53,546 bases of DNA from Candidatus Kuenenbacteria bacterium RIFCSPHIGHO2_02_FULL_39_13 (GTDB lineage Bacteria; Patescibacteriota; Patescibacteriia; UBA2196; GWA2-42-15). The notes under the pieces were generated by a model. The model was not told the DNA's origin. It saw only the letters and a list, made by a program, of their open reading frames with translations, and did no database searches. The position numbers and the translations under genes are program-made. Positions 5,614 to 50,680 of the stretch are shown here, piece after piece (the stretch's first letter is position 1; the number at the start of each line of letters is the position of its first letter). The DNA lies in assembly GCA_001783595.1 (NCBI GenBank), contig MFMW01000029.1, positions 1 through 53,546 on the forward strand. The letters are read 5' to 3'.

Positions 5614-6214
5614 CTATCTTGCCGGTTAGACGACTGATAATAATATTTTTCTTGTATTGCGTTTGCTGATAACCAAGAGTAACAGTGACCTCATCAATAC
5701 TATCGCTGCCATTAAAATAGATAGTGCCATAAGGAGGGATAAAAATAATATTTAAGGCATTGCCAGGAACAACATTGTCAATATAGACATGGCTGTCTAA
5801 CATGCCTATTTGTTGGACTAATGCGTCATTAACGGCATGATCATATTCGTAATCGTAATTTCCGTCCTGATCGGCCTGGTTGGCAAAAAGCGCGTAAGAA
5901 CAGTTGGCAGTACATTTGCTAAGATAAACGCCAAAACCGCCGGCTGGCCTGACGCCATTAACAGTCAAGCCGATTAAGGCATCAATATGAGCCTCGCGAA
6001 TAATAGTGGCCAGCCTTTCCGTCTCATTATTCAGTGCGCCTCTCTGCGTAGAACCTTTAAAATTAGCTATCACCAAAACTGACATAATGGCAATAATACT
6101 GGCGCAAACAATCAACTCAATGATGCTGAAGCCCCGCCCACAACGTTTCGCCAGCCCGCATTGCTGGCGAACATAGTGAGGCGGGCAAACAATTTTATTC
6201 TTTTTAAAATCCAT
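5603..6214 (-). CDS. prepilin-type minor pilin (GspH/FimT-like) with unusually long leader
   Basis: Has a ...CGRGFSIIELIVCASIIAIMSV cleavage motif. A 28-aa leader precedes the Gly and is encoded partly by a GC-rich palindrome. Confidence 0.7.
   Translation of the reverse strand: MDFKKNKIVCPPHYVRQQCGLAKRCGRGFSIIELIVCASIIAIMSVLVIANFKGSTQRGALNNETERLATIIREAHIDALIGLTVNGVRPAGGFGVYLSKCTANCSYALFANQADQDGNYDYEYDHAVNDALVQQIGMLDSHVYIDNVVPGNALNIIFIPPYGTIYFNGSDSIDEVTVTLGYQQTQYKKNIIISRLTGKIDVQ
6131..6186. repeat. GC-rich palindromic element inside the prepilin leader coding sequence
   Basis: Perfect 9-bp stem TTCGCCAGC (6147..6155) / GCTGGCGAA (6163..6171), with imperfect outer arms GCCCCGCCC / GAGGCGGGC. 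Confidence 0.7.
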
Positions 6215-6983
6215 ACAAATTAATATTTAAATACCATTCAATTATTTTATCAACCCAAAGTAAAGAAATGAACGTGCCAATGGAGAGAAATGCGCCCAAC
6301 GGCACTGTGGATTTCATAGTGGCCCGTTTAGTGATAATCAAGCCAAGGCCAATTATTGAGCCAAGAACATAGCTAATTACCAGAGCAACCAGAATGTTTG
6401 GCCAGCCAAGCATCAAACCAATTAAAATGCCTAAACGAATATCCCCTCCCCCGATCCATTGACCGCGAGAAACAATGAACTGCAAAAAGAAAAATCCTCC
6501 GGCAATTAAGGCGGCGAGCAATAAATTAAGCAGATTATAAAAAAACAAATTAAAAATAAAAGCGATAATTATAGCCGGGATGATAATTTTATCAAGAATT
6601 AAATAATATTTAAAATCATAGATAAAAATGATGATTAGAAATGCAGTAAACGTCCAATTGCGTAAAATTAATAATAGGTTGTAAGTTGTAAGTTGTAAGT
6701 TGTAAGTTGCGATAAAAACAATTAAAAAAAGCATGGCGGTAATTAATTCAACTAACGGATATTGAAGCGATATTTTTTTCCGGCACCAGCGGCATTTGGC
6801 GCGCAACAGAAAATAGCTTAGAAGCGGAATGTTGTCATACCAGTTTATCTGTTTTTTACACTGGGGGCAAAAAGAACGGCCGGTAATAGCTTGCTTATTT
6901 TTCAAACGATAAATTAAGCAATTAATAAAACTGCCAATAATTAATCCCAAAAGAATCACAATAAAATAAAAGAAATAAATCAT
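6204..6983 (-). CDS. pilD: prepilin peptidase / N-methyltransferase (A24 family)
   Basis: Cys motifs CPQCKKQ...CRWCRKK, LQYPLVELITA, catalytic Asp contexts IYDFKYY and GGGDIRLG. Start trimmed to the ATG at 6983 (MIYFFYFIVILLG). Confidence 0.9.
   Translation of the reverse strand: MIYFFYFIVILLGLIIGSFINCLIYRLKNKQAITGRSFCPQCKKQINWYDNIPLLSYFLLRAKCRWCRKKISLQYPLVELITAMLFLIVFIATYNLQLTTYNLLLILRNWTFTAFLIIIFIYDFKYYLILDKIIIPAIIIAFIFNLFFYNLLNLLLAALIAGGFFFLQFIVSRGQWIGGGDIRLGILIGLMLGWPNILVALVISYVLGSIIGLGLIITKRATMKSTVPLGAFLSIGTFISLLWVDKIIEWYLNINLYGF
6678..6709. repeat. GTTGTAA heptamer tandem repeat (4.5 units) inside pilD coding sequence
   Basis: Counted directly. Encodes ATYNLQLTTYNLL on the coding strand. 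Confidence 0.9.
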
Positions 6984-6998
6984 ACTGATATTATAGCA
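6984..6998 (-). promoter_or_regulatory. candidate extended -10 promoter (TGCTATAAT) 6 nt upstream of the pilD ATG; possible leaderless mRNA
   Basis: The minus strand reads TGCTATAAT-ATCAGT-ATG. No SD sequence, and the -35 is weak. Confidence 0.3.
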
Positions 6999-7002
6999 TA
7001 AA

Positions 7003-7031
7003 ACCTGCCCTGACAAAATGCCAGGGCAGGT
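7003..7031 (-). terminator. stem-loop terminator after the PIN gene
   Basis: CCTGCCCTG (7004..7012) pairs with CAGGGCAGG (7022..7030). Followed by TTTTAT on the minus strand. Confidence 0.45.
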
Positions 7032-7050
7032 GAATGAATATAGGTATATT

Positions 7051-7431
7051 TTAGTCCAGCGGATCAATAATTTGCAAACCCATCACTTTGTCAAAATCTT
7101 TCTTGTTGTGAGTGATTAAAATTAAATTATTGGCTAAAGCCGTAGCGGCAATAACAGCATCGGGCAATTTTAATTTATATTTTTTTCTAATCTCAATTGT
7201 TTTGTCCACAATCTCATCATCCAATTCATTGATTTTAAAATCTTCAATAAATTCTTTGATCTTACGATCTTCTTCGAGTTCTAAACCAGGGTAACTGAAA
7301 AGTTCTATCTTTGTTATAACTGATAAACTAATAAACTCCAACCCTTCAACAATAGCTGCAAAATAGCTACTTAAATTTTTCTGGCTTCTTAGATAATACA
7401 AAATTGAATTGGTATCCAAAGCGTATTGCAT
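7051..7431 (-). CDS. vapC: PIN-domain ribonuclease, VapC-like toxin
   Basis: 126 aa. N-terminal ALDTNSILYYL (acidic Asp), then a later Glu (ITKIELFSY), LPDAVIAATA and ITHNKKDF, matching the PIN acidic-residue pattern. Confidence 0.8.
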   Translation of the reverse strand: MQYALDTNSILYYLRSQKNLSSYFAAIVEGLEFISLSVITKIELFSYPGLELEEDRKIKEFIEDFKINELDDEIVDKTIEIRKKYKLKLPDAVIAATALANNLILITHNKKDFDKVMGLQIIDPLD

Positions 7432-7441
7432 AGCTTTAAAA

Positions 7442-7672
7442 TTATAAATCTAAATCTCTATCCCACTCGGCTCTAATTTTCCTCTCATATTTCAGGGGAT
7501 CAATAATAATTCTGTTTTTTAATAATCCTTTATATTGTTTCAGATAAGTCCTGGCAGTTGTTTGTTTTTTTTGCCTAGATAATGCTAAAAGCCCTTCCAG
7601 AATTTTTCTCGGAATTTCAATAGTTACGTTATCGCCTTGAATTTTAGGCTGAACCAAAATAGAATTATTCAT
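7442..7672 (-). CDS. putative antitoxin partner of the PIN toxin
   Basis: 76-aa ORF ending 10 nt upstream of vapC, the usual TA gene order. Family not recognised. Confidence 0.5.
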   Translation of the reverse strand: MNNSILVQPKIQGDNVTIEIPRKILEGLLALSRQKKQTTARTYLKQYKGLLKNRIIIDPLKYERKIRAEWDRDLDL

Positions 7673-7790: not shown

Positions 7791-8282
7791 TTAGGTACAA
7801 GTAATACCATTCGGAGTGGCAGTACAACAGGTGAGACCATAAGTAGTACATGTCAAACCACCAGTCGCGCCCTCAAGCCCAAAAACCAGAGAATAAGTTG
7901 CGCCAGCACCGGCAGTCAGACTGGTATAAGTATAAGCACCGTTGGTTGGCGGAGTTGGCGCGGCAGGAACTTGGCCCATATATGTTGTAAGACAACCAGT
8001 AGCATCAGCTCGGAAACCAACACCGGCAGTGGCTGTACTGCATAGTACTTTTCCGTTGGCTCCCCCCAAAACAACAGCCGCGGCAGAATAAGGATAGGCA
8101 TTAGCATCCACAAAGTAAAGTTCCAAAGCGGTTTGGATTTGTTTAATATCGGAAACTCGTTTGGCGTCACGGGATTTCAGCCTGGCGTTATTTAAGGCAA
8201 CAACAGACAAAGTGGCTAACAGGCCGATAATAGCAATAACCACTAACAACTCAATTAAAGTAAAACCTTTTTTATTTTTCAT
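7791..8282 (-). CDS. pilA: type IV major pilin
   Basis: MKNKKGFTLIELLVVIAIIGLLATLSVVALNNARLKSRDAKR: short leader, G/FTLIE cleavage site, Cys pairs in the C-terminal half. Has its own terminator. Confidence 0.85.
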   Translation of the reverse strand: MKNKKGFTLIELLVVIAIIGLLATLSVVALNNARLKSRDAKRVSDIKQIQTALELYFVDANAYPYSAAAVVLGGANGKVLCSTATAGVGFRADATGCLTTYMGQVPAAPTPPTNGAYTYTSLTAGAGATYSLVFGLEGATGGLTCTTYGLTCCTATPNGITCT

Positions 8283-33794: not shown

Positions 33795-35723
33795 TTAATT
33801 TTCATTAAAATACCACGCAATTACATCTTTAAACACTGGTATGGCCACGGTTGACCCTTCACCCCCGTTTTCTAAAAGAATAGTGATGACAATGCGCGGC
33901 GAGTCATAAGGAGCAAAGCCAGTAAACCAGGCGTGCGATTCTTTGCCAGCGCCAACTTGAGCCGTGCCTGTTTTCCCGGCCACGGCAATAGGCAAGGATT
34001 GCAGCGCTTTGGCTGAACCACTGGTAATAGTAGCTCGGAGAGCTCGGCGAATGATGTCAATATTTTCAGCAGAGGCTAAATTTTTTGCCAGAATATAGTC
34101 TTGGCTGGCATCAGAGTTAGGCTCGCTCTTTAAACCATTGGCATTAATTATTTCTTTTAACAGGTGCGGCTGATAAAGAGTGCCGCCATTGGCGAAAAAG
34201 GCGGTGTAGCTGGCGATCTGAAGCGGCGTAACTAAAATATCACCTTGACCAATGGCCAAATGGTAGGTATCGCCAATATACCAAGATTCCCGCTTGGTTT
34301 CTTCTTTCCAAGACTTACTGGGCAAAAAACCGCTTGCTTCACCCGGCAAATCAATGCCTAGGGTTTTAGATAAATAAAATTTTCTGGCAAAATCAGTTAT
34401 TTTTTGAACGCCCAAACCAGTAAAGTCATTATAGCCGCCGCCAATGTAGTAAAAAAAAGTGTTGACTGAATTGGCAATGGCGCTGATAACATTGACCCGG
34501 CCGTGGCCGCCGTATTTCCAATCAGGGAAGAACCATTTGTCAAGCTGCAGGCCGCCAGTGCTTAGAAAAGTTTTTTGTTCATTGATAATGCCCTGTTCAA
34601 GCGCGGCCAGAGCAACTAATGGTTTAAAAGTTGAGCCCGGCGGATAAGTGCCGGCGATAGCGCGATTAAACAAGGGCTTGCGCTGATCAGTTAAATAATT
34701 TTGATAAGCATCTTCGGCTATGCCGGCGCTGAAAAAATTATTATCAAAATCGGGCAAGCTAACAATGCTTAATATTTCTCCGCTTTGCGGGTCAAGCGCA
34801 ATGGCCACGCCCGTCTGGCTGGTAGCTGAATTTTTAATTGCTGCGGCCAAGCTTTGGCTAAGCTTTTTTTGAAGCTCGGCATCAATCGTCAGGACAAGAC
34901 TGGCGCCAATCTGCGGATCAGTCCTGTTTAATATCTTTTTGGTTTTACCAAGAGCGTCAACTTCAATTTCTTGAACGCCGTTTTTGCCTTTGAGAATCGG
35001 TTCATAAAATAATTCAACGCCGTCTTTGCCCAAAGTGTCATTTATCTCGTAATTTTGAGCAACAGATTGAGCAAATTCAGCCGGGCTAATTTTGCCCACA
35101 TAACCCAGGATATGCGATAAACCGCCGCCTTCAAGATAGTCGCGCCGAGGTTCAATGGTCGTGTAGATGCCGGCTAAATTATCCTCAATGCTTTTAAGCC
35201 TGATTGCTTGCTCATGCGAGAGATTGCCGGCAATCAGGACTGGTTCATAAGAATGGGCTTTGGCCTGACTAAAAGTTTGCCAGAGCTCGTCTGGATTTTT
35301 ATCAATAATGGCAGCGAGGACTTGGCTTAAATTTCTTTTTGGCTGGTCGTCTGAAGGCAGGTCAGATGGAATAAAATAAAGCGAGACATTGGGCAGATTG
35401 GCAACCAAAGGAGTATGGTAGCGATCGTAAATAATGCCGCGCTCTGCTTTGATGGACGAAAGCCTAATGCGATTGCCTTCGGCGATCTGATTATAATTTC
35501 CACCCTTGATAGCTTGAAGATAAAAAGCGCGCGCCATAATAATAACCAATGAGAAAATCATCACAAAAAAAATGACCCTGAATTTTTCGCGGGTTAAGGT
35601 CAGAGTTATCTTTTCTTGGCTGGCAGCCAACCAAAAATCAGAGCCTATCTGCCTTAAACGGCTAAAGCCCTTAATTTTAGCAATACTTTCCCTGATAATA
35701 AATGGGTTGGAGTTGGTCTTCAT
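33795..35723 (-). CDS. mrdA: penicillin-binding protein 2 (elongasome transpeptidase)
   Basis: 642 aa. STFKP, SVN and KTGTA motifs. Follows mreC-mreD. Confidence 0.9.
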   Translation of the reverse strand: MKTNSNPFIIRESIAKIKGFSRLRQIGSDFWLAASQEKITLTLTREKFRVIFFVMIFSLVIIMARAFYLQAIKGGNYNQIAEGNRIRLSSIKAERGIIYDRYHTPLVANLPNVSLYFIPSDLPSDDQPKRNLSQVLAAIIDKNPDELWQTFSQAKAHSYEPVLIAGNLSHEQAIRLKSIEDNLAGIYTTIEPRRDYLEGGGLSHILGYVGKISPAEFAQSVAQNYEINDTLGKDGVELFYEPILKGKNGVQEIEVDALGKTKKILNRTDPQIGASLVLTIDAELQKKLSQSLAAAIKNSATSQTGVAIALDPQSGEILSIVSLPDFDNNFFSAGIAEDAYQNYLTDQRKPLFNRAIAGTYPPGSTFKPLVALAALEQGIINEQKTFLSTGGLQLDKWFFPDWKYGGHGRVNVISAIANSVNTFFYYIGGGYNDFTGLGVQKITDFARKFYLSKTLGIDLPGEASGFLPSKSWKEETKRESWYIGDTYHLAIGQGDILVTPLQIASYTAFFANGGTLYQPHLLKEIINANGLKSEPNSDASQDYILAKNLASAENIDIIRRALRATITSGSAKALQSLPIAVAGKTGTAQVGAGKESHAWFTGFAPYDSPRIVITILLENGGEGSTVAIPVFKDVIAWYFNEN

Positions 35724-35726
35724 AAA

Positions 35727-36251
35727 TCAACTGATAAACTGGCTGATTAAGCGCGATTTAAAGCGAGCTGAAATTTTGTAGAGCGCTAAAATAATAAAGG
35801 AATGAACTATTATTTGCGCTAAAGAAAAAACAAAATAGCTGGCTGTCAGGCTGTTGGCAGGACTAACACTGCTGAATTTGGCAGCGCTCAATAAAACTAC
35901 AAGGTAAATAATTTGATAAATAATAAGAGAAATTAAATTGACTAAAATGAAAACTGCCAAATTTTTATGCTGGAGAATGCTCTTGAGAATAGCTTTGATG
36001 GCAAAGACTTCAAGCAGAAAAAGGAGGATAAAAAAACCAAAAAATAATGGCGAATAGACATCTAAGATTAAGCCAGCAAATACGGCGGCCAATACGGCGG
36101 TGCCGTAATGATAAAAATAGCTGATAAAAACAAGCAGCAAAAGCGGCAGATTAATCAAAAGCGCTAGCTGGTAATCAATGCCCGGCAGAAAGCCAATTTG
36201 CAAGGCAATGACCAAAATAATGACTAATAGCAGCGAAAAAATTTTAAGCAT
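35727..36251 (-). CDS. mreD: rod shape-determining protein MreD
   Basis: 174-aa polytopic membrane protein between mreC and PBP2. Confidence 0.7.
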   Translation of the reverse strand: MLKIFSLLLVIILVIALQIGFLPGIDYQLALLINLPLLLLVFISYFYHYGTAVLAAVFAGLILDVYSPLFFGFFILLFLLEVFAIKAILKSILQHKNLAVFILVNLISLIIYQIIYLVVLLSAAKFSSVSPANSLTASYFVFSLAQIIVHSFIILALYKISARFKSRLISQFIS

Positions 36252-36255
36252 AGCC

Positions 36256-37068
36256 TTAATTTTTTTGAGGAATAATAACAGTCACCAAACGAACATTTTG
36301 GTAGTCAACGGCCGGCTCAACCAAAGCCTCTTGCCAGTATTTTTCAGGTGTAGCCTCAACTTTGCTAACCCGGCCAATAATCAGACCGGCTGGAATATTT
36401 TCCTCCAGGCCTGAAGTGGCCACTAGGTCATTTTCATTTATCTTGATATCTTTGGCTAGCAGATCAATTTTTAAATTAATATTGTGCAGACCTTGAGCAA
36501 TGCCCAGAGCACTTTTATCGCCCGCAACAGTTACAGCGATTTTGCTAACGTTATCGCTTAAAAGCCTGACATGAGAAATATTTTCTTCAACTGAACTGAT
36601 TTTACCAATGATAATTCCTTGATTAGTCGTAACAGCCAGACCAGGTTTCAAGCCGCGCGACAAGCCTTGATTGATAATAATTTGGCTGGCAGCATAATCT
36701 AGATTGCGGCCTAAAACACGAGCGAGTAAATAATTTTCTTTTTGCTCATCAAAAAATTTTAATTCTTTTTTTAACCACTCATTTTCCTGGCGCAGTGTTT
36801 CTAGCGCGACATTTTTTTTAGCCAGCTCAATCAATTTTTGATTTAAGTCATCATTTTTTTTACTTAAATCAGCACGAGCCAGATAAACAGCCAGAAAGTC
36901 GCTCAAGGCCGCGGCAGTATAGTTGGCAGTGGCGATAATGGGATTAGTAAAAATAGTAATGTATCTGGTTGTTAAACGACTTAAGCCTAAATAATAAGAC
37001 AAGATTATAATTAGACAAAAAACAAGGATAATCACCGTTATTTTGCGCTGGAATTTAAATTTCAACAT
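36256..37068 (-). CDS. mreC: rod shape-determining protein MreC
   Basis: 270 aa. N-terminal TM helix, coiled coil, and two beta-barrel motifs (GIIIGKISSVE and GLIIGRVSKVE). Confidence 0.85.
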   Translation of the reverse strand: MLKFKFQRKITVIILVFCLIIILSYYLGLSRLTTRYITIFTNPIIATANYTAAALSDFLAVYLARADLSKKNDDLNQKLIELAKKNVALETLRQENEWLKKELKFFDEQKENYLLARVLGRNLDYAASQIIINQGLSRGLKPGLAVTTNQGIIIGKISSVEENISHVRLLSDNVSKIAVTVAGDKSALGIAQGLHNINLKIDLLAKDIKINENDLVATSGLEENIPAGLIIGRVSKVEATPEKYWQEALVEPAVDYQNVRLVTVIIPQKN

Positions 37069-37169
37069 AAATAGATTACTGTTAATTTTAATAGTAGCAT
37101 TATTTTAACAGAAAAAACAGAAAAATACAAAAATCAACCGAAATCCCGACCAGATAGCCGGGATCCTTT

Positions 37170-37343
37170 TTATTTCTTCCAATCTTTTATTTGTATTGTT
37201 CTGCCTTTTAAATTTACGATAACTTTTTGCTTTTCCTTCCATTTTATTTTTTTTACAATTTCAATCGGTGAACTGACCACATAACTGTTGCCGCTTTTCA
37301 TAATTTTTCTGATGTTTTCTTGCGCTATTTTTCGTCTGGACAT
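37170..37343 (-). CDS. AbrB/SpoVT-type small DNA-binding protein (57 aa)
   Basis: ORF below the track cutoff: MSRRKIAQENIRKIMKSGNSYVVSSPIEIVKKIKWKEKQKVIVNLKGRTIQIKDWKK, a swapped-hairpin AbrB-like pattern. A hairpin (ATCCCG..CGGGAT, 37144..37166) follows it. Confidence 0.5.
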   Translation of the reverse strand: MSRRKIAQENIRKIMKSGNSYVVSSPIEIVKKIKWKEKQKVIVNLKGRTIQIKDWKK

Positions 37344-37423
37344 ATTTTGATTTTATATACTTATAATGATTATAATCATGACGGGATTAATTCTTACTGA
37401 ATTAATATACACCACATAAAAAC

Positions 37424-37546
37424 TTATCCAATAACCTTATAAAATTTATTTTCACTGCACATTTGCTTAATTTTGTTAGTTTTATTTATGCCAACCTCTT
37501 TAATCAGCACATTAAAATATAAAGCAAAAACTAAATCATCAATTAA
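37424..37546 (-). pseudogene. out-of-frame second copy of the RM enzyme C-terminal module
   Basis: LIDDLVFALYFNVLIKE..CSENKFYKVIG versus IDDLVFVLYFNVPVKK..CGENKFYKILLS in the 1088-aa protein. A 36-nt core is 34/36 identical. Confidence 0.55.
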
Positions 37547-37806
37547 AAACCAAGCTTGCCTTGCTTGGCTAAAAGTTTCGGATCTGGCTTTTCTCTTGGT
37601 CCCATTTTTCTTTTTTGTCGCGCTTCTTCTTTTAATTGCCATCTTCTGTCATATTCTTTTCTTCCCTGCCTTAAATAATCCCGAATTTCTTCTGGCATAA
37701 AACTTTCTTCCGGTTTTAGCATCACCTGATCTAACTGCTGCTCACTCAACAATCTCACATTAGGCAAAATAAACTTGCTTTTTTTAGAATTATTTTTTTT
37801 GCTCAT
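37543..37806 (-). CDS. hypothetical 87-aa highly charged protein (possibly the N-terminal part of a frameshifted ~126-aa ORF)
   Basis: ATG lies 15 nt after the RM gene stop. Ends in an A5 (+ strand) homopolymer exactly where the C-terminal-module copy begins. Confidence 0.45.
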   Translation of the reverse strand: MSKKNNSKKSKFILPNVRLLSEQQLDQVMLKPEESFMPEEIRDYLRQGRKEYDRRWQLKEEARQKRKMGPREKPDPKLLAKQGKLGF

Positions 37807-37821
37807 ATTTTTAAAAAATAT

Positions 37822-40800
37822 TTAAGATAACAAAATTTTATAGAATTTATTCTCTCCACAATTTTTTCTAATCTCTCCTGCTTTATCCATGCTAATTTTT
37901 TTAACAGGCACATTGAAATATAAAACAAAAACTAAATCATCAATATAATTTTTTAGTTTTTTCTGCTTTTCAAAGTCAATAACTGGCAATTCTTTTAATT
38001 CTGATAAAATAATTTGATCTTCTTTATATAACTTTAATTTGTTGTCTTGATACATATCTTTTATTGCCTGCCCAACAATTTTTTGGTCGCTTTTAATTTT
38101 TAATCTTATCTGCTTTTTATTTTTTTCTAAAATTAAATAACCATCTTTAACTGATACATCGTCAAATTTCTGCATCATTACTTTTGAAAAATCAGCTAAA
38201 TCACTTAATCTAATATCCTCTAACTTCAACATTTCCTCTGTTCTTTTTATAATTTCATCTTTAATAAACTGATTCCTTTCTGTAATTTTTGGCACACGAA
38301 CAAATTCTTTTATCGCTTTCACGGGTACTAAATATTCTTTTTCATTTTCATTTTTTAAATTTGTTTCTAAAAGTAAATTAGTAGCAGGAAAATTTAGTAG
38401 GGAAAACAAATATAAAATTTCTTTTTTATTGATTGAACAAATAATAGAGGCAGTTCCCATATTAAAAATAATTGGAGTATCAGTGAAATAAAACTTTTGA
38501 GGATTTTTAATACTCCAAACTATTTTATATTTTTGCTCTAATACTTCTAAACCTTGACTATTTTGAGTCAATTTAATTAACTTTTTATTTTTAGGATAAT
38601 ATTCGCTAGGAGTAAATTTTGAATAATTTTGAAAATTTTTAAAGTTCAACACGCCATAATGATCACCATCATTCTTCTTCAAAATATTTTTATTATTTAA
38701 AATAAAACCAATATCAAAATAAAATTTACTTTTAAAATTATATTCTGCGACGGCATGATTGTAATAAATTGAAATACAATCAGTGTTTTTCTTGTATGCC
38801 TCATAAAAATCTAAAAACTTTTTATCCTGTTTGATAAAATTCCAATTACTTACATTTTGTAATAATTTGTTTTGCAAGATTTTCTTTTTATTTATTTTTT
38901 TGTTCTCCAAAATATTTTTCAAGCAATCTTCAATATTATCATTAGCATCTTTATAGTGTATTATTTCTACTTGATCTCTATATAAATCAGGTGGTATTCT
39001 TCTAACCACAAAAACCAAACTTGATGTTGCAATCGGCTTATTTTGTTTAAGCCCACGCCCGACGAACATCTTGCCAGAAAAAGTAATAATTTTTTCAATG
39101 GTTGTAAATTTTGCCAAATGATAACGAAGAACATCCAAATCACCAGCAGTTAAAATCGTCTGTGGGATAATATAACACAATCTGCCGTTATCCTTTAATA
39201 AAGCCAGGCCAAGCGCAATAAAAAAAGCGTATAAATTTGGTTTGGGAGAATATTTTTTGCGATGATCTGGAATGCTGTGCAAATTTACTCCATAAATATC
39301 ATTTAATTTCATTTTGCTTTCCTTAATCCAATTAAATGACAACAAACCTTGTTTAGAACATTCATTATAAGAAACATAAGGCGGATTGCCGATTATAAAA
39401 TCAAATCTCATCCGCGGAAATTTTTGATTTCCCAAACTCTCTTTCATCTCTTTTAAATCATCTTCCTCACGCATATAACTCTCATAATCCATCTTTAATA
39501 ATTTGTCATAAAATAACTTCATCTGGCCATTGCTTTTAATATAAGCGGCTTCGATATCACTTAGTGTATATTTTAATTTTGTGTCCTGAAATTCAGCAAT
39601 ACTATCATGGGTTTGAAAAACTTTAATTTTTTTATCAATTGGATTATTGTATTTTTCATTGATAATTAAGGGCAACATTCTCATTAAGATATTCATTTCA
39701 GCCAAATATAACGGAAATTCCTCAATATCTAATCCATAGACATTATTATTTACCAATTCTTCAACTTTTTGAGATTGCTTTTCAGAACCATCTGGGACTG
39801 CTGTAATAATCTGATCAACAGCGCTGTATAAAAATGTGCCGCTACCACACGACGGATCGTTGATTGAAATATAATTGTCTTCTATTCTATTTTTTAATCT
39901 TTTTTTAATTTCTTCAGAAGTATAGCCAACCTGCTCTAACATAAAATTAACAACCGCCGGGTCAGTAAAATATTGTCCTTTTTTAGTATTTTCATACAAC
40001 GCTTTTAAATAATTTTCGTAAATATAACCAAAAATTTCATTTTTAACATTAGCAAAATTGTATTTTTTAATTAAAACAAAAATTTCTAACCAAGGCGCTA
40101 CATCATGCAACTCGTTTTCCGGTTGGTGCAGTAATTCTGATAATTTTTGGTTGATAAATTTTTGCTCTACGTTAAAAGGATGATAAATATTTTTTGAAAT
40201 ATTTTCTGAAATTCCATCAATCACGCTTAAAATACTTTTATACTGTTTTGCTTGCAAACTTTTGTAAATTGATTCCTGCCTTTGTTCAAAATCTTTCTTA
40301 AATTCGCCAAATTCATTATCAACCAATGTTTTGTAAAGAATAAATTGGATAATATAAGCATAAGAAAGTTCTACTATTTTCTTGGCTCTTTCTTTTTCTT
40401 GCATTTCCTTTAAATAACCTTCTAATTTGATTTTGTCTCTAAAAATTTCTATCTTTTCCGTAATGTCTTCAAAAAACATTGCTCTGTTATTTTCAACTCT
40501 AATAACTTCCTCAATTAATTTTTGTTGCCCTACTTTTTCAAAAAATTGCAAATAATAATGTTCTGGCAGAATATAATCTTTTTGCCAAAAGTTTGAAAAC
40601 AATTTTGGGTTGTCTAAAATTTGTTTTATTGTAAATTCTCGATAAACGGTTTCTATATAAAATCTCCATTCTTGACCATCAGTTAAAATTCCATATTTTT
40701 TATCTAAGTCTTTTTGATAAATAAACAATTGCTCTGCTCCGTTTTCAATCTTACCCAGTGCTTTTACCTCAACAGGAATAACAATTTCAGAATTAATATA

Positions 40801-41088
40801 AATTACAAAATCTGCGTGCCGTCCACCTTTAGTTTTACTCTCTTGGATAAATTCATTTTTCCGCTCTGCTGTCTTTTTTGATAAACTGCCTTCTTTTAAA
40901 TTAAAAAGTTCAGGACATTCCAAGACATCCCTAATAAATTTATGGACTCCACTGCCAACTTCCTGAGTTTGGTAATGCTTCTTTTCTTTATTCCATTTTG
41001 ATTTGAGACCTAAAATTGAGAGCATATTATTAAGTAATTCGTTTAATTTGTTTTTAATCCCCTCTTTCTTACACTTTAATCTTCCCAC
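37822..41088 (-). CDS. type IIG restriction-modification enzyme (fused PD-(D/E)xK nuclease, N6-adenine methyltransferase and target-recognition domain)
   Basis: 1088 aa. Nuclease motif HADFVIY..IPVEVKALG with QEWRFY. MTase motifs GQYFTDP, DPSCGSGTF and GNPPY (39376..39390). Long C-terminal specificity region. The start is uncertain: GTG at 41088 or ATG at 41025. Confidence 0.85.
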   Translation of the reverse strand: MGRLKCKKEGIKNKLNELLNNMLSILGLKSKWNKEKKHYQTQEVGSGVHKFIRDVLECPELFNLKEGSLSKKTAERKNEFIQESKTKGGRHADFVIYINSEIVIPVEVKALGKIENGAEQLFIYQKDLDKKYGILTDGQEWRFYIETVYREFTIKQILDNPKLFSNFWQKDYILPEHYYLQFFEKVGQQKLIEEVIRVENNRAMFFEDITEKIEIFRDKIKLEGYLKEMQEKERAKKIVELSYAYIIQFILYKTLVDNEFGEFKKDFEQRQESIYKSLQAKQYKSILSVIDGISENISKNIYHPFNVEQKFINQKLSELLHQPENELHDVAPWLEIFVLIKKYNFANVKNEIFGYIYENYLKALYENTKKGQYFTDPAVVNFMLEQVGYTSEEIKKRLKNRIEDNYISINDPSCGSGTFLYSAVDQIITAVPDGSEKQSQKVEELVNNNVYGLDIEEFPLYLAEMNILMRMLPLIINEKYNNPIDKKIKVFQTHDSIAEFQDTKLKYTLSDIEAAYIKSNGQMKLFYDKLLKMDYESYMREEDDLKEMKESLGNQKFPRMRFDFIIGNPPYVSYNECSKQGLLSFNWIKESKMKLNDIYGVNLHSIPDHRKKYSPKPNLYAFFIALGLALLKDNGRLCYIIPQTILTAGDLDVLRYHLAKFTTIEKIITFSGKMFVGRGLKQNKPIATSSLVFVVRRIPPDLYRDQVEIIHYKDANDNIEDCLKNILENKKINKKKILQNKLLQNVSNWNFIKQDKKFLDFYEAYKKNTDCISIYYNHAVAEYNFKSKFYFDIGFILNNKNILKKNDGDHYGVLNFKNFQNYSKFTPSEYYPKNKKLIKLTQNSQGLEVLEQKYKIVWSIKNPQKFYFTDTPIIFNMGTASIICSINKKEILYLFSLLNFPATNLLLETNLKNENEKEYLVPVKAIKEFVRVPKITERNQFIKDEIIKRTEEMLKLEDIRLSDLADFSKVMMQKFDDVSVKDGYLILEKNKKQIRLKIKSDQKIVGQAIKDMYQDNKLKLYKEDQIILSELKELPVIDFEKQKKLKNYIDDLVFVLYFNVPVKKISMDKAGEIRKNCGENKFYKILLS

Positions 41089-41204
41089 TTTTTAGCTTAA
41101 AAGTCAAAAAAACCTTGAATTGCGGGCGGGTGTGGTCTTCGAGGAGAAGAATAAAAAAAATTTGCCATGATTAAAATCATGACATAAAAAAATCCAAATG
41201 CGAT

Positions 41205-42242
41205 TTACCTTGCCGAGGGTATTAAAATGTCCTGCAATCCTTTAAGGTCTTCAAGAATCAGGCCTGTGCCGCGAACCACGGTGGTTAATGGCTCATCAAT
41301 AATAGTTACTGGCACTCTGGTTTCTTTTTTAACCAGTTCATCAAGGCCTTTTAAAAGCGCGCCGCCGCCGGAGAGAATAATGCCGCGGCGGTAAATGTCT
41401 GCCACCAACTCTGGCGGGGTTTGTTCAATCGTGCTTTTGATGTTAGTAACAATACTTCTGATTGAGCGCATAATAGCCTCTCTGACTTCACTGTCAGTGA
41501 TTGTTATTTCTTTAGGCAAGCCATTAAGCAGATCGCGGCCGGAAACGGCCAGTTCAACTGGCTTTTCAGCAGGATAGACGGCAGCCAGTTTGATTTTGAC
41601 GCGCTCGGCCGTAATATCACCGATAAGCAGGTTAAAATTTTCTCTGATGTATTGAATGATATTTTTTGTTAAAACATCGCCAGCAATATGAATTGATTTG
41701 CTGACCACCACGCCAGAAAGAGAAATCACGGCAATTTGGGTGGTGCCGCCGCCAATGTCAACGATTAAATTGCCTGTTGATTCCTGAATGGGCATCCTGG
41801 CGCCAATGGCTGCCGCCATCGGCTCTTCAACTAAAAAGACTTCGCGCGCGCCAGCGCCCAAAGCGGCGTCTTCAACTGCCTTGCGCTCCACTTCTGTCAC
41901 ATCCAATGGGATGCCAATGACAATCCGCGGTTTAGAGCCTAAAAGCCCTAATTTTTCATTTAATATCTTTTCAATAAAATACTTTAACATTTTTTCCGTG
42001 ACTTCAAAGTCGGAAATAATGCCTTCAACTAGAGGTTTGCTAATCATAATATGGCTGGGAGTTTTACCAATCATCCGTTTGGCGTCATCGCCAATGGCAA
42101 TAATTTGGTCTGTCCGAGTATTAATAGCCACGACTGACGGTTCATTGACCATAATGCCTTTGTCTTTAACATAAATCAGGGTACTTGATGTACCCAGATC
42201 TACTCCCAAGTCTTTTCTTAAATTGGGAAAAATTTTAAACAT
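41205..42242 (-). CDS. mreB: rod shape-determining protein MreB
   Basis: 345 aa. LGVDLGTSSTLIYV, NEPSVVA, DIGGGTTQIAVISL and ILSGGGALL. Confidence 0.95.
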   Translation of the reverse strand: MFKIFPNLRKDLGVDLGTSSTLIYVKDKGIMVNEPSVVAINTRTDQIIAIGDDAKRMIGKTPSHIMISKPLVEGIISDFEVTEKMLKYFIEKILNEKLGLLGSKPRIVIGIPLDVTEVERKAVEDAALGAGAREVFLVEEPMAAAIGARMPIQESTGNLIVDIGGGTTQIAVISLSGVVVSKSIHIAGDVLTKNIIQYIRENFNLLIGDITAERVKIKLAAVYPAEKPVELAVSGRDLLNGLPKEITITDSEVREAIMRSIRSIVTNIKSTIEQTPPELVADIYRRGIILSGGGALLKGLDELVKKETRVPVTIIDEPLTTVVRGTGLILEDLKGLQDILIPSAR

Positions 42243-49672: not shown

Positions 49673-50680
49673 TTATTTCATCGCCAAAATACTTCTCTTG
49701 TAAGCCGCCAGGTTTTCCAGAGCAATACCGGTGCCTTTGACCACGCACAACAGAGGGTCATCGGCATTATAGGCTGGTACGCCAATAGCTTGAGAAAATA
49801 GCTCATCTATGTTTCGCAGCAGCGCGGTGCCGCCGGAAAGCACAATGCCTTTGTCCATAATGTCAGCGGAAAGCTCTGGCGGGGTGTTGTAAAACACTGA
49901 TTTAACGGCAGCAACCAGATTGGCCAGTTCATCTTGCAAGGCATCGGTGACATCATCGGAACTAACCGTAATAATGCGCGGCAAGCCGCTAACCATATCA
50001 CGTCCTTTAATTTCAGCGGTTAATTTTTTATCTAAATAAAGAGCGGAGCCGACTTTTATTTTTATCATTTCAGCGCTTCTTTCGCCAATGGCTAAATTGT
50101 ATTTTTTACGGATATGCTCTTGGATAGCGGCATCAAATTTATTGCCTCCAATTCTGACTGAACTGTTGGTAACAATGCCGCCCAGGGAGATAACGGCGAT
50201 TTCAGAGGTGCCGCCGCCCATATCAATAATCATATGACCGCTGGCTGAACCAATGGGAAGATTGGCGCCAATGGCGGCGGCAATCGGCTCTTTGATAATA
50301 TAGGCCGCTTTTGCTCCGGCGGCGAGCGTGGCATCAATGGCTGCGCGACGTTCAGTTGAAGTTACGCCGCCAGGCACAGCAATCATAACTTCAGGCCGAA
50401 ATAGCCGCAGCCCGCCAATGGCTTTATTAATAAAATAGCGCAACATGGCTTCAGTGGTTTTGTAATCAGCAATCACTCCGTCTTTCAACGGCCTAGCAGC
50501 CATAATAGTATCCGGAGTCCTGCCAATCATCTCTTTGGCCTCATCGCCCACAGCCAGCACTTTCTTGTCCAAAAGCGAATAAGCCACCACTGATGGCTCA
50601 TTAATAATAATGCCTTTATTTGGCAGATAAACCAGGGTAGTGGTTGTGCCAAGATCAATGCCGATTTTTTTGAGAAACAT
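49673..50680 (-). CDS. mreB: second MreB-family actin homologue
   Basis: 335 aa. IGIDLGTTTTLVYL, NEPSVVA, DMGGGTSEIAVISL and VLSGGTALL. Clearly a paralogue of 41205..42242. Confidence 0.9.
   Translation of the reverse strand: MFLKKIGIDLGTTTTLVYLPNKGIIINEPSVVAYSLLDKKVLAVGDEAKEMIGRTPDTIMAARPLKDGVIADYKTTEAMLRYFINKAIGGLRLFRPEVMIAVPGGVTSTERRAAIDATLAAGAKAAYIIKEPIAAAIGANLPIGSASGHMIIDMGGGTSEIAVISLGGIVTNSSVRIGGNKFDAAIQEHIRKKYNLAIGERSAEMIKIKVGSALYLDKKLTAEIKGRDMVSGLPRIITVSSDDVTDALQDELANLVAAVKSVFYNTPPELSADIMDKGIVLSGGTALLRNIDELFSQAIGVPAYNADDPLLCVVKGTGIALENLAAYKRSILAMK

Follow-up and report, generated by a model that had tools for sequence, protein, structure and literature searches.

Gene order, base composition and the mreB-mreC junction

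In a 53,546-nt stretch of DNA from Candidatus Kuenenbacteria bacterium RIFCSPHIGHO2_02_FULL_39_13 (contig MFMW01000029.1; hereafter the window), the cell-shape genes mreB and mreC are parted by 4136 bp that hold a predicted single-chain type IIG-like restriction-modification (RM) gene. Coordinates are window positions, and the island and the flanking mre genes are on the minus strand (Table 1). Every gene between 33795 and 43682 lies on this strand, the order from upstream being proS, mreB, the gap, mreC, an open reading frame (ORF) at the mreD position and the PBP2 gene. Four elements were found inside the gap: a 1088-amino-acid (aa) ORF, an 87-aa ORF (orf87), a 107-nt copy of the 3' end of the large gene, and a 57-aa ORF. 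A preliminary description of this DNA had proposed a type IIG-like RM island of about 4.1 kb that separates mreB from mreC-mreD-mrdA. The measured gap agrees with this, and the flanking genes were matched by Pfam except for mreD. The core of the proposal is supported by the low G+C content, the enzyme domains and the closed junction in relatives, the function being predicted from sequence.

The G+C content of the 4066-bp insert was 0.282, compared with 0.399 in the remainder of the window. When the window was cut into non-overlapping pieces of this size, these had a mean of 0.399, a standard deviation (sd) of 0.014 and a minimum of 0.371, which places the island approximately 8.5 sd low. Sliding G+C values were 0.23-0.32 over 37000-41000 and approximately 0.40 around it, and the G+C content at third codon positions was 0.233 in the large gene compared with 0.34-0.44 in the flanking genes. 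The spot counts from which the insert had been called richer in A+T than mreB (15 of 60 G+C, against 22 and 34 of 60 in mreB) were exact, and the windowed calculation proposed with them gave the same picture. Homologues of the large gene were likewise AT-richer than their own flanks in five other genomes, a pattern that a low-GC family moving between hosts would give. No recombinase family was matched by any island ORF in Pfam, NCBIfam or PADLOC, in line with the earlier remark that no integrase or transposase is visible, and no tRNA gene was detected in the island. The search for att sites or inverted repeats of a mobile element returned only a weak 18-nt likeness to the spacer start at the left edge.

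One genome per species was scanned with MreB, which gave 80 Patescibacteria loci, and both genes were found in 73 of them. In 71 of the 73, mreC follows mreB after 16-450 bp, as had been assumed; the 71 include a Kuenenbacteria genome in which MreB is 75% identical and the gap measures 28 bp. An ancestral island was ruled out because these 71 loci have no insert.

The first of the two exceptions is a sister species (L081; L-numbers denote loci retrieved for comparison), whose MreB and MreC are 94% and 90% identical to those of the window and whose junction holds 3.9 kb with other genes. This cargo consists of AbiEi/AbiEii, a 305-aa ORF without a Pfam match and a convergent N6/N4 methyltransferase (MTase) gene; because the MTase gene adjoins it, the 305-aa ORF was taken as a restriction endonuclease (REase). 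The same AbiE-plus-RM arrangement was present on five metagenome contigs. In L081, AbiEii is followed by 95 nt that repeat the mreB 3' end with 91% identity, and each end of the insert carries approximately 50 nt of native spacer; such duplications would be expected if circular DNA had integrated by a single crossover. In the second exception, a Parcubacteria locus (L084), a nucleotidyltransferase MNT/HEPN pair and a 1423-aa ORF are located between mreB and mreC. The relatives thus do not share the island's genes at this junction. Literature searches returned nothing on insertions at mreB-mreC.

When the window was aligned with L081, homology ended at TAAATCG after mreB; 66 nt ahead of the mreC start it resumed with ATTTTTGTATTTTTCTG. 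The three insertion points read from the sequences of both lineages differ, and all are inside the spacer of approximately 70 nt; therefore, the spacer is better regarded as a permissive spot than as a single att site. The G+C content of 0.282 against 0.399, the 71 closed loci out of 73 and the different cargo of the sister species argue for a foreign origin of the island.

Two further observations concern the sister species. Just upstream of the presumed REase gene of L081, the sequence was read as what is left of the C-terminus of a helix-turn-helix (Xre-like) ORF, which may be a truncated controller gene. Between mreC and mreD, some contigs of the sister species carry two NYN-domain genes and low-GC DNA, and in L089 (8810-9339) mreD comes directly after mreC, which indicates strain-level presence or absence at a second spacer of the mre operon.

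Table 1. Positions of the features described in the text (window coordinates unless a comparison locus is named)
Feature	Position	Strand	Basis
mreB, upstream flank	41205-42242	-	Pfam MreB_Mbl, E 4.7e-132; sister-species homology through stop codon plus ATCG (aligned with L081, L005)
Inserted low-GC DNA (4066 bp), island proper	37135-41200	-	G+C content; end of homology to L081
Box 1, 20-nt palindrome GTCATGATTTTAATCATGGC	41164-41183	.	21 nt after mreB stop
RM promoter-like element, TTGACT-17 nt-GAAGAT (putative)	41079-41107	-	Consensus match
Single-chain type IIG/IIL-like RM gene	37822-41025	-	Pfam, PADLOC, homologues, fold
PD-(D/E)xK-fold N-domain (aa 1-165)	40531-41025	-	Domain model, fold matches, alignment
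Gamma-class N6-adenine MTase core (aa ~341-680)	38986-40005	-	Motifs X, I, IV in order
C-terminal target-recognition region and conserved helix YIDDLVFxLYFN (aa 681-1067)	37825-38985	-	High-confidence model part
orf87, small Lys/Arg/Glu-rich protein	37543-37806	-	Homologues directly after RM gene
Non-coding relic of RM 3' end (LIDDLVFALYFNVLIKEVGINK...)	37437-37543	-	Direct repeat of 37838-37944, 107 nt, 74% identity
Box 2, palindrome GTCATGATTATAATCATTAT	37363-37382	.	Ends 19 nt upstream of AbrB-like start codon
57-aa AbrB/MazE/SpoVT-fold (swapped-hairpin) predicted DNA-binding protein gene	37170-37343	-	Pfam family match
Terminator-like GC-rich hairpin (11 pairs) with U-rich tail, island end	37141-37166	-	Fold -15.3 to -16 kcal/mol
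Native mreB-mreC spacer kept beside mreC	37069-37134	-	Conserved in L081
mreC, mreD-position ORF and PBP2, downstream flank	33795-37068	-	
mreC	36256-37068	-	Pfam MreC, E 5.7e-32
174-aa membrane ORF, mreD by position only	35727-36251	-	No Pfam match
PBP2 (mrdA)	33795-35723	-	Pfam Transpeptidase plus PBP_dimer
Stand-alone RM homologues	L110/L111 4001-7240; L087 5001-8210		
Duplicated host sequence flanking sister island, and presumed helix-turn-helix ORF remnant	L081 577-719, 2185-2279, 2280-2413, 4496-4545		
mreC-mreD spacer insert in sister species	L081 5380-6560; L088 9173-9991; L091 6278-7096		
MNT/HEPN pair plus 1423-aa ORF	L084 11281-16309		

The large predicted restriction-modification protein

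The large ORF runs from a GTG at 41088 to 37822 (1088 aa), and from an ATG at 41025 it encodes 1067 aa. The ATG is used by the gene callers in three independent assemblies and by all homologues, and is most likely the start of the gene. The 1088-aa polypeptide of the preliminary description exists as an ORF, with each motif exactly where it had been placed (D93, E107-V-K109, QEWRFY 139, GQYFTDP 371, DPSCGSGTF 411 and GNPPY 567 in the 1088-aa numbering), but its start had to be corrected. The 1067-aa numbering is used below unless otherwise stated.

In Pfam, the protein matched Eco57I with 77.3 bits (cut-off, 25.3) and MmeI_Mtase with 33.2 bits (cut-off, 27), and in PADLOC it matched the type IIG model REase_MTase_IIG (1e-14). 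Motifs X (GQYFTDP, 350), I (DPSCGSGTF, 390) and IV (NPPY, 547) were invariant in a 34-sequence alignment, and an alignment with TaqI covers motif IV. The profile searches suggested earlier thus aligned the MTase core above the cut-offs, and together with the motif order X-I-IV they support the claim of a gamma-class N6-adenine MTase. Within the otherwise conserved C-terminal region of the 34-sequence alignment, a block at approximately residues 775-860 is variable, which fits a recognition domain with differing specificities. The AlphaFold model of the whole protein had a mean predicted local distance difference test (pLDDT) value of 69.8, with good N- and C-terminal parts and a poor segment at residues 427-600. 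Its fold matches were PglX of the bacteriophage exclusion (BREX) system, BpuSI (type IIG), CamA, DrdV (type IIL) and LlaBIII, with E-values from approximately 5e-13 to 1e-8, those of PglX, BpuSI, CamA and DrdV being on the order of 1e-13 to 1e-10. Those to CamA, PglX and BpuSI extend over the MTase plus the recognition domain and, with the variable block, agree with the specificity region that had been assigned to the C-terminus.

At least 883 homologues of the large protein were present among 8000 scored candidates, and the best 120 were 57-73% identical over the full length. Named sources among the homologues are Daviesbacteria, Kuenenbacteria, Buchananbacteria, Zixibacteria and Stahlbacteria, and the family is mostly found in the Candidate Phyla Radiation (CPR). 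RM homologues stand alone between rpsF-ssb and recA (L087) and between mraY and murD-ftsW-murG (L110/L111, Buchananbacteria). No adjacent methylase, specificity or helicase gene was found in the island or in the other examined RM loci. Because its homologues stand alone, the large gene is considered to be self-sufficient like those of type IIG/IIL enzymes. The family repeatedly sits inside core gene clusters. Defence genes in an mre operon, which the preliminary description had regarded as unusual, are less so than it held, given the presence of this family at mraY-murD and ssb-recA and of other defence genes at the mreB-mreC junction of relatives. A scan of viral contigs with the family alignment confirmed no relative, and plasmid records yielded only the MTase core at 22-27% identity and no close relative. 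As to phase variation, the RM coding region contained no homopolymer of at least 8 nt (A/T) or at least 6 nt (G/C) and no short repeat.

A separate model of residues 1-165 (pLDDT 84) had secondary structure elements in the order alpha-beta-beta-beta-alpha-beta. Its top three fold matches in the PDB were all nucleases, namely an HsdR nuclease fragment (3h1t), Cas4 (4r5q) and the DrdV nuclease domain (7lvv_D), the last of which aligned over the entire N-domain with TM scores of 0.54/0.59. D72 and E86 are invariant in the family alignment. These fold matches are weak, with a best E-value of 8.6e-3 and none at or below 1e-3; the Pfam family HSDR_N_2 was sub-threshold on residues 89-144 of the 1088-aa ORF (18.1 bits against a cut-off of 25 bits), and a sequence profile of the N-domain gave no meaningful match in the PDB. 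The weak N-domain matches, and the presence of BREX PglX among the best whole-protein fold and NCBIfam matches, could suggest that the large protein is no restriction enzyme but a PglX-like BREX MTase, or an orphan methylase with a non-nuclease N-domain. This is very improbable, since the NCBIfam PglX models scored 17-41 bits against cut-offs of 400-900 bits, no BREX genes adjoin the large gene here or its homologues in five other loci, and the N-domain combines the element order given above with the invariant D and E and with nucleases as its three best fold matches.

The motif of the family is D-x13-E-x-E. Residue 88 is E in 114 of 117 homologues, and K occurs at this position only in the window protein and in one other. 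D...E-x-K is the canonical motif in most PD-(D/E)xK nucleases. The PD-(D/E)xK nuclease named in the preliminary description finds support in the fold, whose matches are weak, and in the invariant D72 and E86, but the E-V-K form by which it was recognized is exceptional in this family. In addition, when private changes were counted at columns with agreement in at least 31 of 33 sequences, residues 1-340 had 14 of them and residues 341-1067 had 4 (Fisher p 0.0008), and none of the 33 homologues showed such an N-terminal skew. The large protein, K88 included, is identical in three independent assemblies, and the change is therefore fixed. BamHI, like most of the family, has E at the equivalent position, and its E113K mutant reportedly no longer cleaves. 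It is possible, although we hold it doubtful, that the enzyme is disarmed: its motif would still be methylated, its nuclease would be inactive, and as an orphan MTase it would be harmless inside an essential operon. The K may on the other hand be active, E-x-K being canonical elsewhere; the ORF is intact, the QYQ and GILTDG..W.F blocks are retained along with D72 and E86, and after correction for 34 tests the p-value of the skew is only approximately 0.03. Hence, the atypical E-to-K change may, but need not, have cost the enzyme its cleavage. The large gene has the architecture of a single-chain type IIG/IIL-like enzyme, with a predicted nuclease, an MTase and a recognition region, and it would be expected to act as one.

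Small genes, palindromes and transcription signals

orf87 starts 15 nt past the RM stop, and its product has the conserved motif LPxVxxL..(E/Q)L....L.PEExFMPxEIxxYLR. Homologues (46-60% identical) are located directly 3' of the RM gene in L085, L099 and L106; the start of the homologue overlaps the RM stop in L085 (TGATG) and the RM end by 17 nt in L106. The RM proteins of L085 and L106 are 72-73% identical to that of the window, and the RM gene of L099 ends at the contig edge. An RM gene followed by orf87/88 was thus seen in four loci including the window, and remoter RM relatives have no orf87. When 1.84 billion representative proteins were searched exhaustively, only 5 matched orf87; no match was obtained in Pfam, NCBIfam, PADLOC or PHROGs, and a word-indexed search returned identical copies only. 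These comparisons indicate that orf87 is a real, rare gene that neighbours only the closest RM relatives, and its tight coupling to the RM gene suggests that it works with the enzyme. The sole longer protein among the matches is one of 168 aa (L107, 331-837) with an orf87-like segment (45% identity, approximately 64 residues); its contig is phage-like, with small overlapping genes that match PHROG families.

Both the 87-aa Lys/Arg/Glu-rich ORF and the copy of the enzyme's C-terminal module reported earlier are present, and the copy is read here as a relic. It follows orf87/orf88 in the window and in L085 and is absent after it in L106. On the simplest reading, an orf87 segment would have been inserted once, long ago, into the 3' end of the RM gene, bringing a replacement C-terminus. 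A 72-aa ORF in this region (37424-37642) was rejected as a gene, since it showed no likeness to anything except in its last 41 codons, which resemble the RM C-terminus.

The 57-aa ORF, described earlier as an AbrB-type gene, was also present. The window protein matched PF04014 (MazE_antitoxin) with an E-value of 6.6e-4 and 20 bits, below the cut-off of 24.7, and all 10 members of its family matched PF04014 at E-values of 0.01 or lower, the best being 1.8e-9. One homologue is named by NCBI as AbrB/MazE family. A profile of the family searched against the PDB reached only E-values of approximately 0.4, to "addiction module antidote" chains. Homologues occur in three contexts without RM genes: before rpoB, between the genes for arginase and PPIase, and after a TspO gene. 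The AbrB-like gene is, as far as its distribution tells, not a general partner of RM genes. The three small elements had been presented as one gene set with the enzyme; all are there, but orf87 is tied only to the closest RM relatives, the copy is a relic, and the AbrB-like gene is found elsewhere without RM genes. The role of antitoxin in a toxin-antitoxin pair was rejected for the AbrB-like gene, no toxin gene adjoining it in the window or in L102-L105. In L100 (5001-5816), the AbrB-like homologue is followed 4 nt on by a 208-aa gene without a Pfam family, which may encode an as yet unrecognised partner, for example a toxin.

In six loci (L100-L105), which represent the three contexts, the start codon of the AbrB-like homologue is preceded by a palindrome, (GTC)ATGATTnnAATCAT(GAC), whose end lies 10-25 nt away. 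Two overlapping copies 12 nt apart are present in L102/L103 and in L104/L105. In the window (53.5 kb), two sites were found against 0.07 expected, and no exact match was found in 80 unrelated Patescibacteria loci. Box 2 holds a TATAAT hexamer, and its flank (ATCCC/ATCCT-GTCATG) is the same as that upstream of the homologues; box 2 is likely to be the promoter and operator of the AbrB-like gene. Box 1 fits the 20-nt consensus at 19 positions and box 2 at 17, and nothing outside the palindrome is duplicated. A copy upstream of the RM gene occurs only in the window. The 57-aa protein probably binds both boxes. Three readings of box 1 are conceivable: it may halt transcripts coming from mreB as a roadblock or terminator, it may control the RM gene from a distance, or it may be a scar left when the modules were joined.

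As RNA, box 1 forms a 9-bp hairpin followed by AAAU8, which is terminator-like (fold -9.8 kcal/mol, z -3.1). TTGACTTTTnnGCTAAAAA in the RM promoter-like region is common to an RM homologue locus (L086), where the element reads TTGACT-17-GATAAT; apart from this shared element, no module boundary was shared among the RM upstream regions of the loci. At the other end of the island, the spacer upstream of mreC differs from that of the sister species L081 by two substitutions in approximately 70 nt and also occurs in L092 and L095. It contains TGTTAAAAT (37102-37110), an extended -10-like TGnTAAAAT element 33 nt before the mreC start for which a promoter role is proposed. All these transcription signals are consensus matches; the promoter- and terminator-like signals and the retained spacer suggest that the island is insulated rather than obligately co-transcribed with its neighbours.

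The palindromes are open to another reading, in which they are scars of assembly: an RM-orf87 module would have inserted into the promoter region of the AbrB-like gene, already in place with its operator, splitting or duplicating a tandem operator, so that box 1 is idle or serves as the mreB terminator. We regard this as conceivable at best, and rather doubtful. The overlapping operators of L102/L103 and L104/L105 make such a split conceivable, orf87-bearing RM relatives (L085, L106) have neither the box nor the AbrB-like gene, box 1 lies approximately 55 nt upstream of the RM -35-like hexamer, and box 1 plus U8 resembles a terminator. Box 1 nevertheless fits the consensus better than box 2 does, with no duplication outside the palindrome, which makes it plausible that box 1 is under selection for protein binding.

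Co-transcription with the mre genes had been considered probable in the preliminary description, and in its strict form the island would be obligately co-transcribed with mreB and mreC, tying defence to the expression of cell-shape genes. The single strand and short gaps are consistent with this, as is the weak, AT-rich nature of the hairpin behind mreB, and CPR promoters are poorly known. It is nevertheless unlikely: terminator-like hairpins stand at both island edges, that after mreB with its U8, the RM promoter-like element is common to a homologue, a -10-like hexamer lies within box 2, and the native TGnTAAAAT spacer is kept before mreC in both insertion-bearing lineages.

Proposed explanation and comparison with known systems

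Taken as a whole, the explanation that we consider probable is that of a horizontally acquired RM island in the mreB-mreC spacer with an AbrB-fold gene and its operators. The comparisons show the insert to be horizontally acquired DNA that landed in the spacer of approximately 70 nt in a Candidatus Kuenenbacteria genome, a spacer that in this clade tolerates insertions and has been hit repeatedly. The C-terminal recognition domain would read a DNA motif, the gamma-class core would N6-methylate adenine in the host copies of that motif, and the N-terminal PD-(D/E)xK-fold domain would cut unmethylated incoming DNA. orf87 travels with one RM sub-branch and would have entered the RM 3' end, leaving the relic of the old C-terminus. 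The AbrB/MazE-fold protein is predicted to bind both boxes; in doing so it would repress its own gene and, in addition, either stop transcription running on from mreB or adjust the expression of the RM gene. The edge signals and the native spacer before mreC would insulate the island from the mre genes.

Several points weigh against this explanation. The fold, Pfam and profile evidence for the N-terminal nuclease is weak, K88 departs from nearly all homologues, and private changes are concentrated in the N-terminal part. The position of box 1 relative to the -35 hexamer is not a classic repressor position, and we know of no single-chain RM enzyme that needs a controller. An empty site in the window's own species was not found when metagenome contigs were scanned for an exact pattern (mreB 3' end, 50-80 nt, mreC 5' end); when the metagenome contigs were scanned a second time, with MreC, the hits were short contigs and the sister species carrying its own cargo, and nothing else.

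A bolder extension would be that in this Kuenenbacteria clade the mre spacers are integrase-free exchange sites of small defence cassettes, and that the E-to-K change plus two AbrB operators have tamed the enzyme into a regulated MTase of a cell-shape operon, under an undescribed class of RM controller. We consider this improbable. The enzyme is of a known kind; the interest lies in the repeated use of mre spacers by different defence cassettes, in the paired putative operators of the AbrB-fold protein and in the unusual residue at the catalytic site; nothing in this is categorically new.

CPR/Patescibacteria genomes are very small and dense, and little is known of the sites at which they take up mobile defence genes. 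The present loci indicate that spacers of essential operons (mreB-mreC, mreC-mreD, mraY-murD and ssb-recA) host single-gene RM enzymes and toxin-antitoxin or abortive-infection modules, and that related species hold different cargo at one junction. The large uncharacterised type IIG-like family with its D...E-x-E motif could yield new specificities, and the locus offers a candidate AbrB-fold operator and a natural E-to-K variant that may part methylation from cleavage.

Two other features of the window were noted. At 7051-7672 (minus strand, G+C 0.31), a PIN-domain (VapC-like) gene (7051-7431) and an upstream 76-aa ORF (7442-7672) lie between a pilin gene (7791-8282) and a prepilin peptidase gene (6204-7067), so that a second small module, of toxin-antitoxin-like type, interrupts a housekeeping operon. 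Another MreB/Mbl paralogue (335 aa; 49673-50680, minus strand) is located upstream of two glycosyltransferase genes, approximately 7.4 kb from mreB.

Among known systems, the large protein is most like type IIG/IIL enzymes (Eco57I family; BpuSI 3S1S, MmeI, DrdV 7LO5), with which it shares an N-terminal PD-(D/E)xK fold, a helical connector, a gamma MTase and C-terminal recognition, and like them it stands alone in several genomes. It differs in being only 11-14% identical to the solved enzymes, in the family motif D-x13-E-x-E rather than E-x-K, and in a low-confidence model segment of approximately 150 residues between motifs I and IV. BREX PglX (BrxX) resembles it in the MTase plus recognition fold, with the best Foldseek matches (8q56 and 9ewz) and a similar C-terminal helix; however, no brxA/B/C/L or pglZ was found in any examined RM locus, the NCBIfam scores are far below the cut-offs, and to our knowledge PglX has no N-terminal nuclease-fold domain.

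The AbrB-like gene recalls the C proteins and C-boxes of type II RM systems, being a small predicted DNA-binding gene behind a palindrome that overlaps its own -10, with a second copy upstream of the RM gene. Its product differs in its swapped-hairpin AbrB/MazE fold, which is not helix-turn-helix, and its binding is predicted; moreover, the gene also occurs away from RM genes, and box 1 lies clear of the RM promoter-like element. From MazE/VapB/Phd-like antitoxins it is distinguished by having no cognate toxin alongside in the window and L102-L105.

The mreB-mreC junction resembles defence-island hotspots in that one junction holds varied cargo: a type IIG RM gene in the window, AbiE plus a type II RM system in the sister species, and MNT/HEPN in one Parcubacteria locus. 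What sets it apart is its place in a reduced genome, within an essential operon for morphogenesis, and the small size of its inserts, which measure only approximately 4 kb and bring neither an integrase nor a tRNA. Within the 70-nt spacer there are at least three insertion points, and the sister species carries a duplicated mreB 3' end and spacer.

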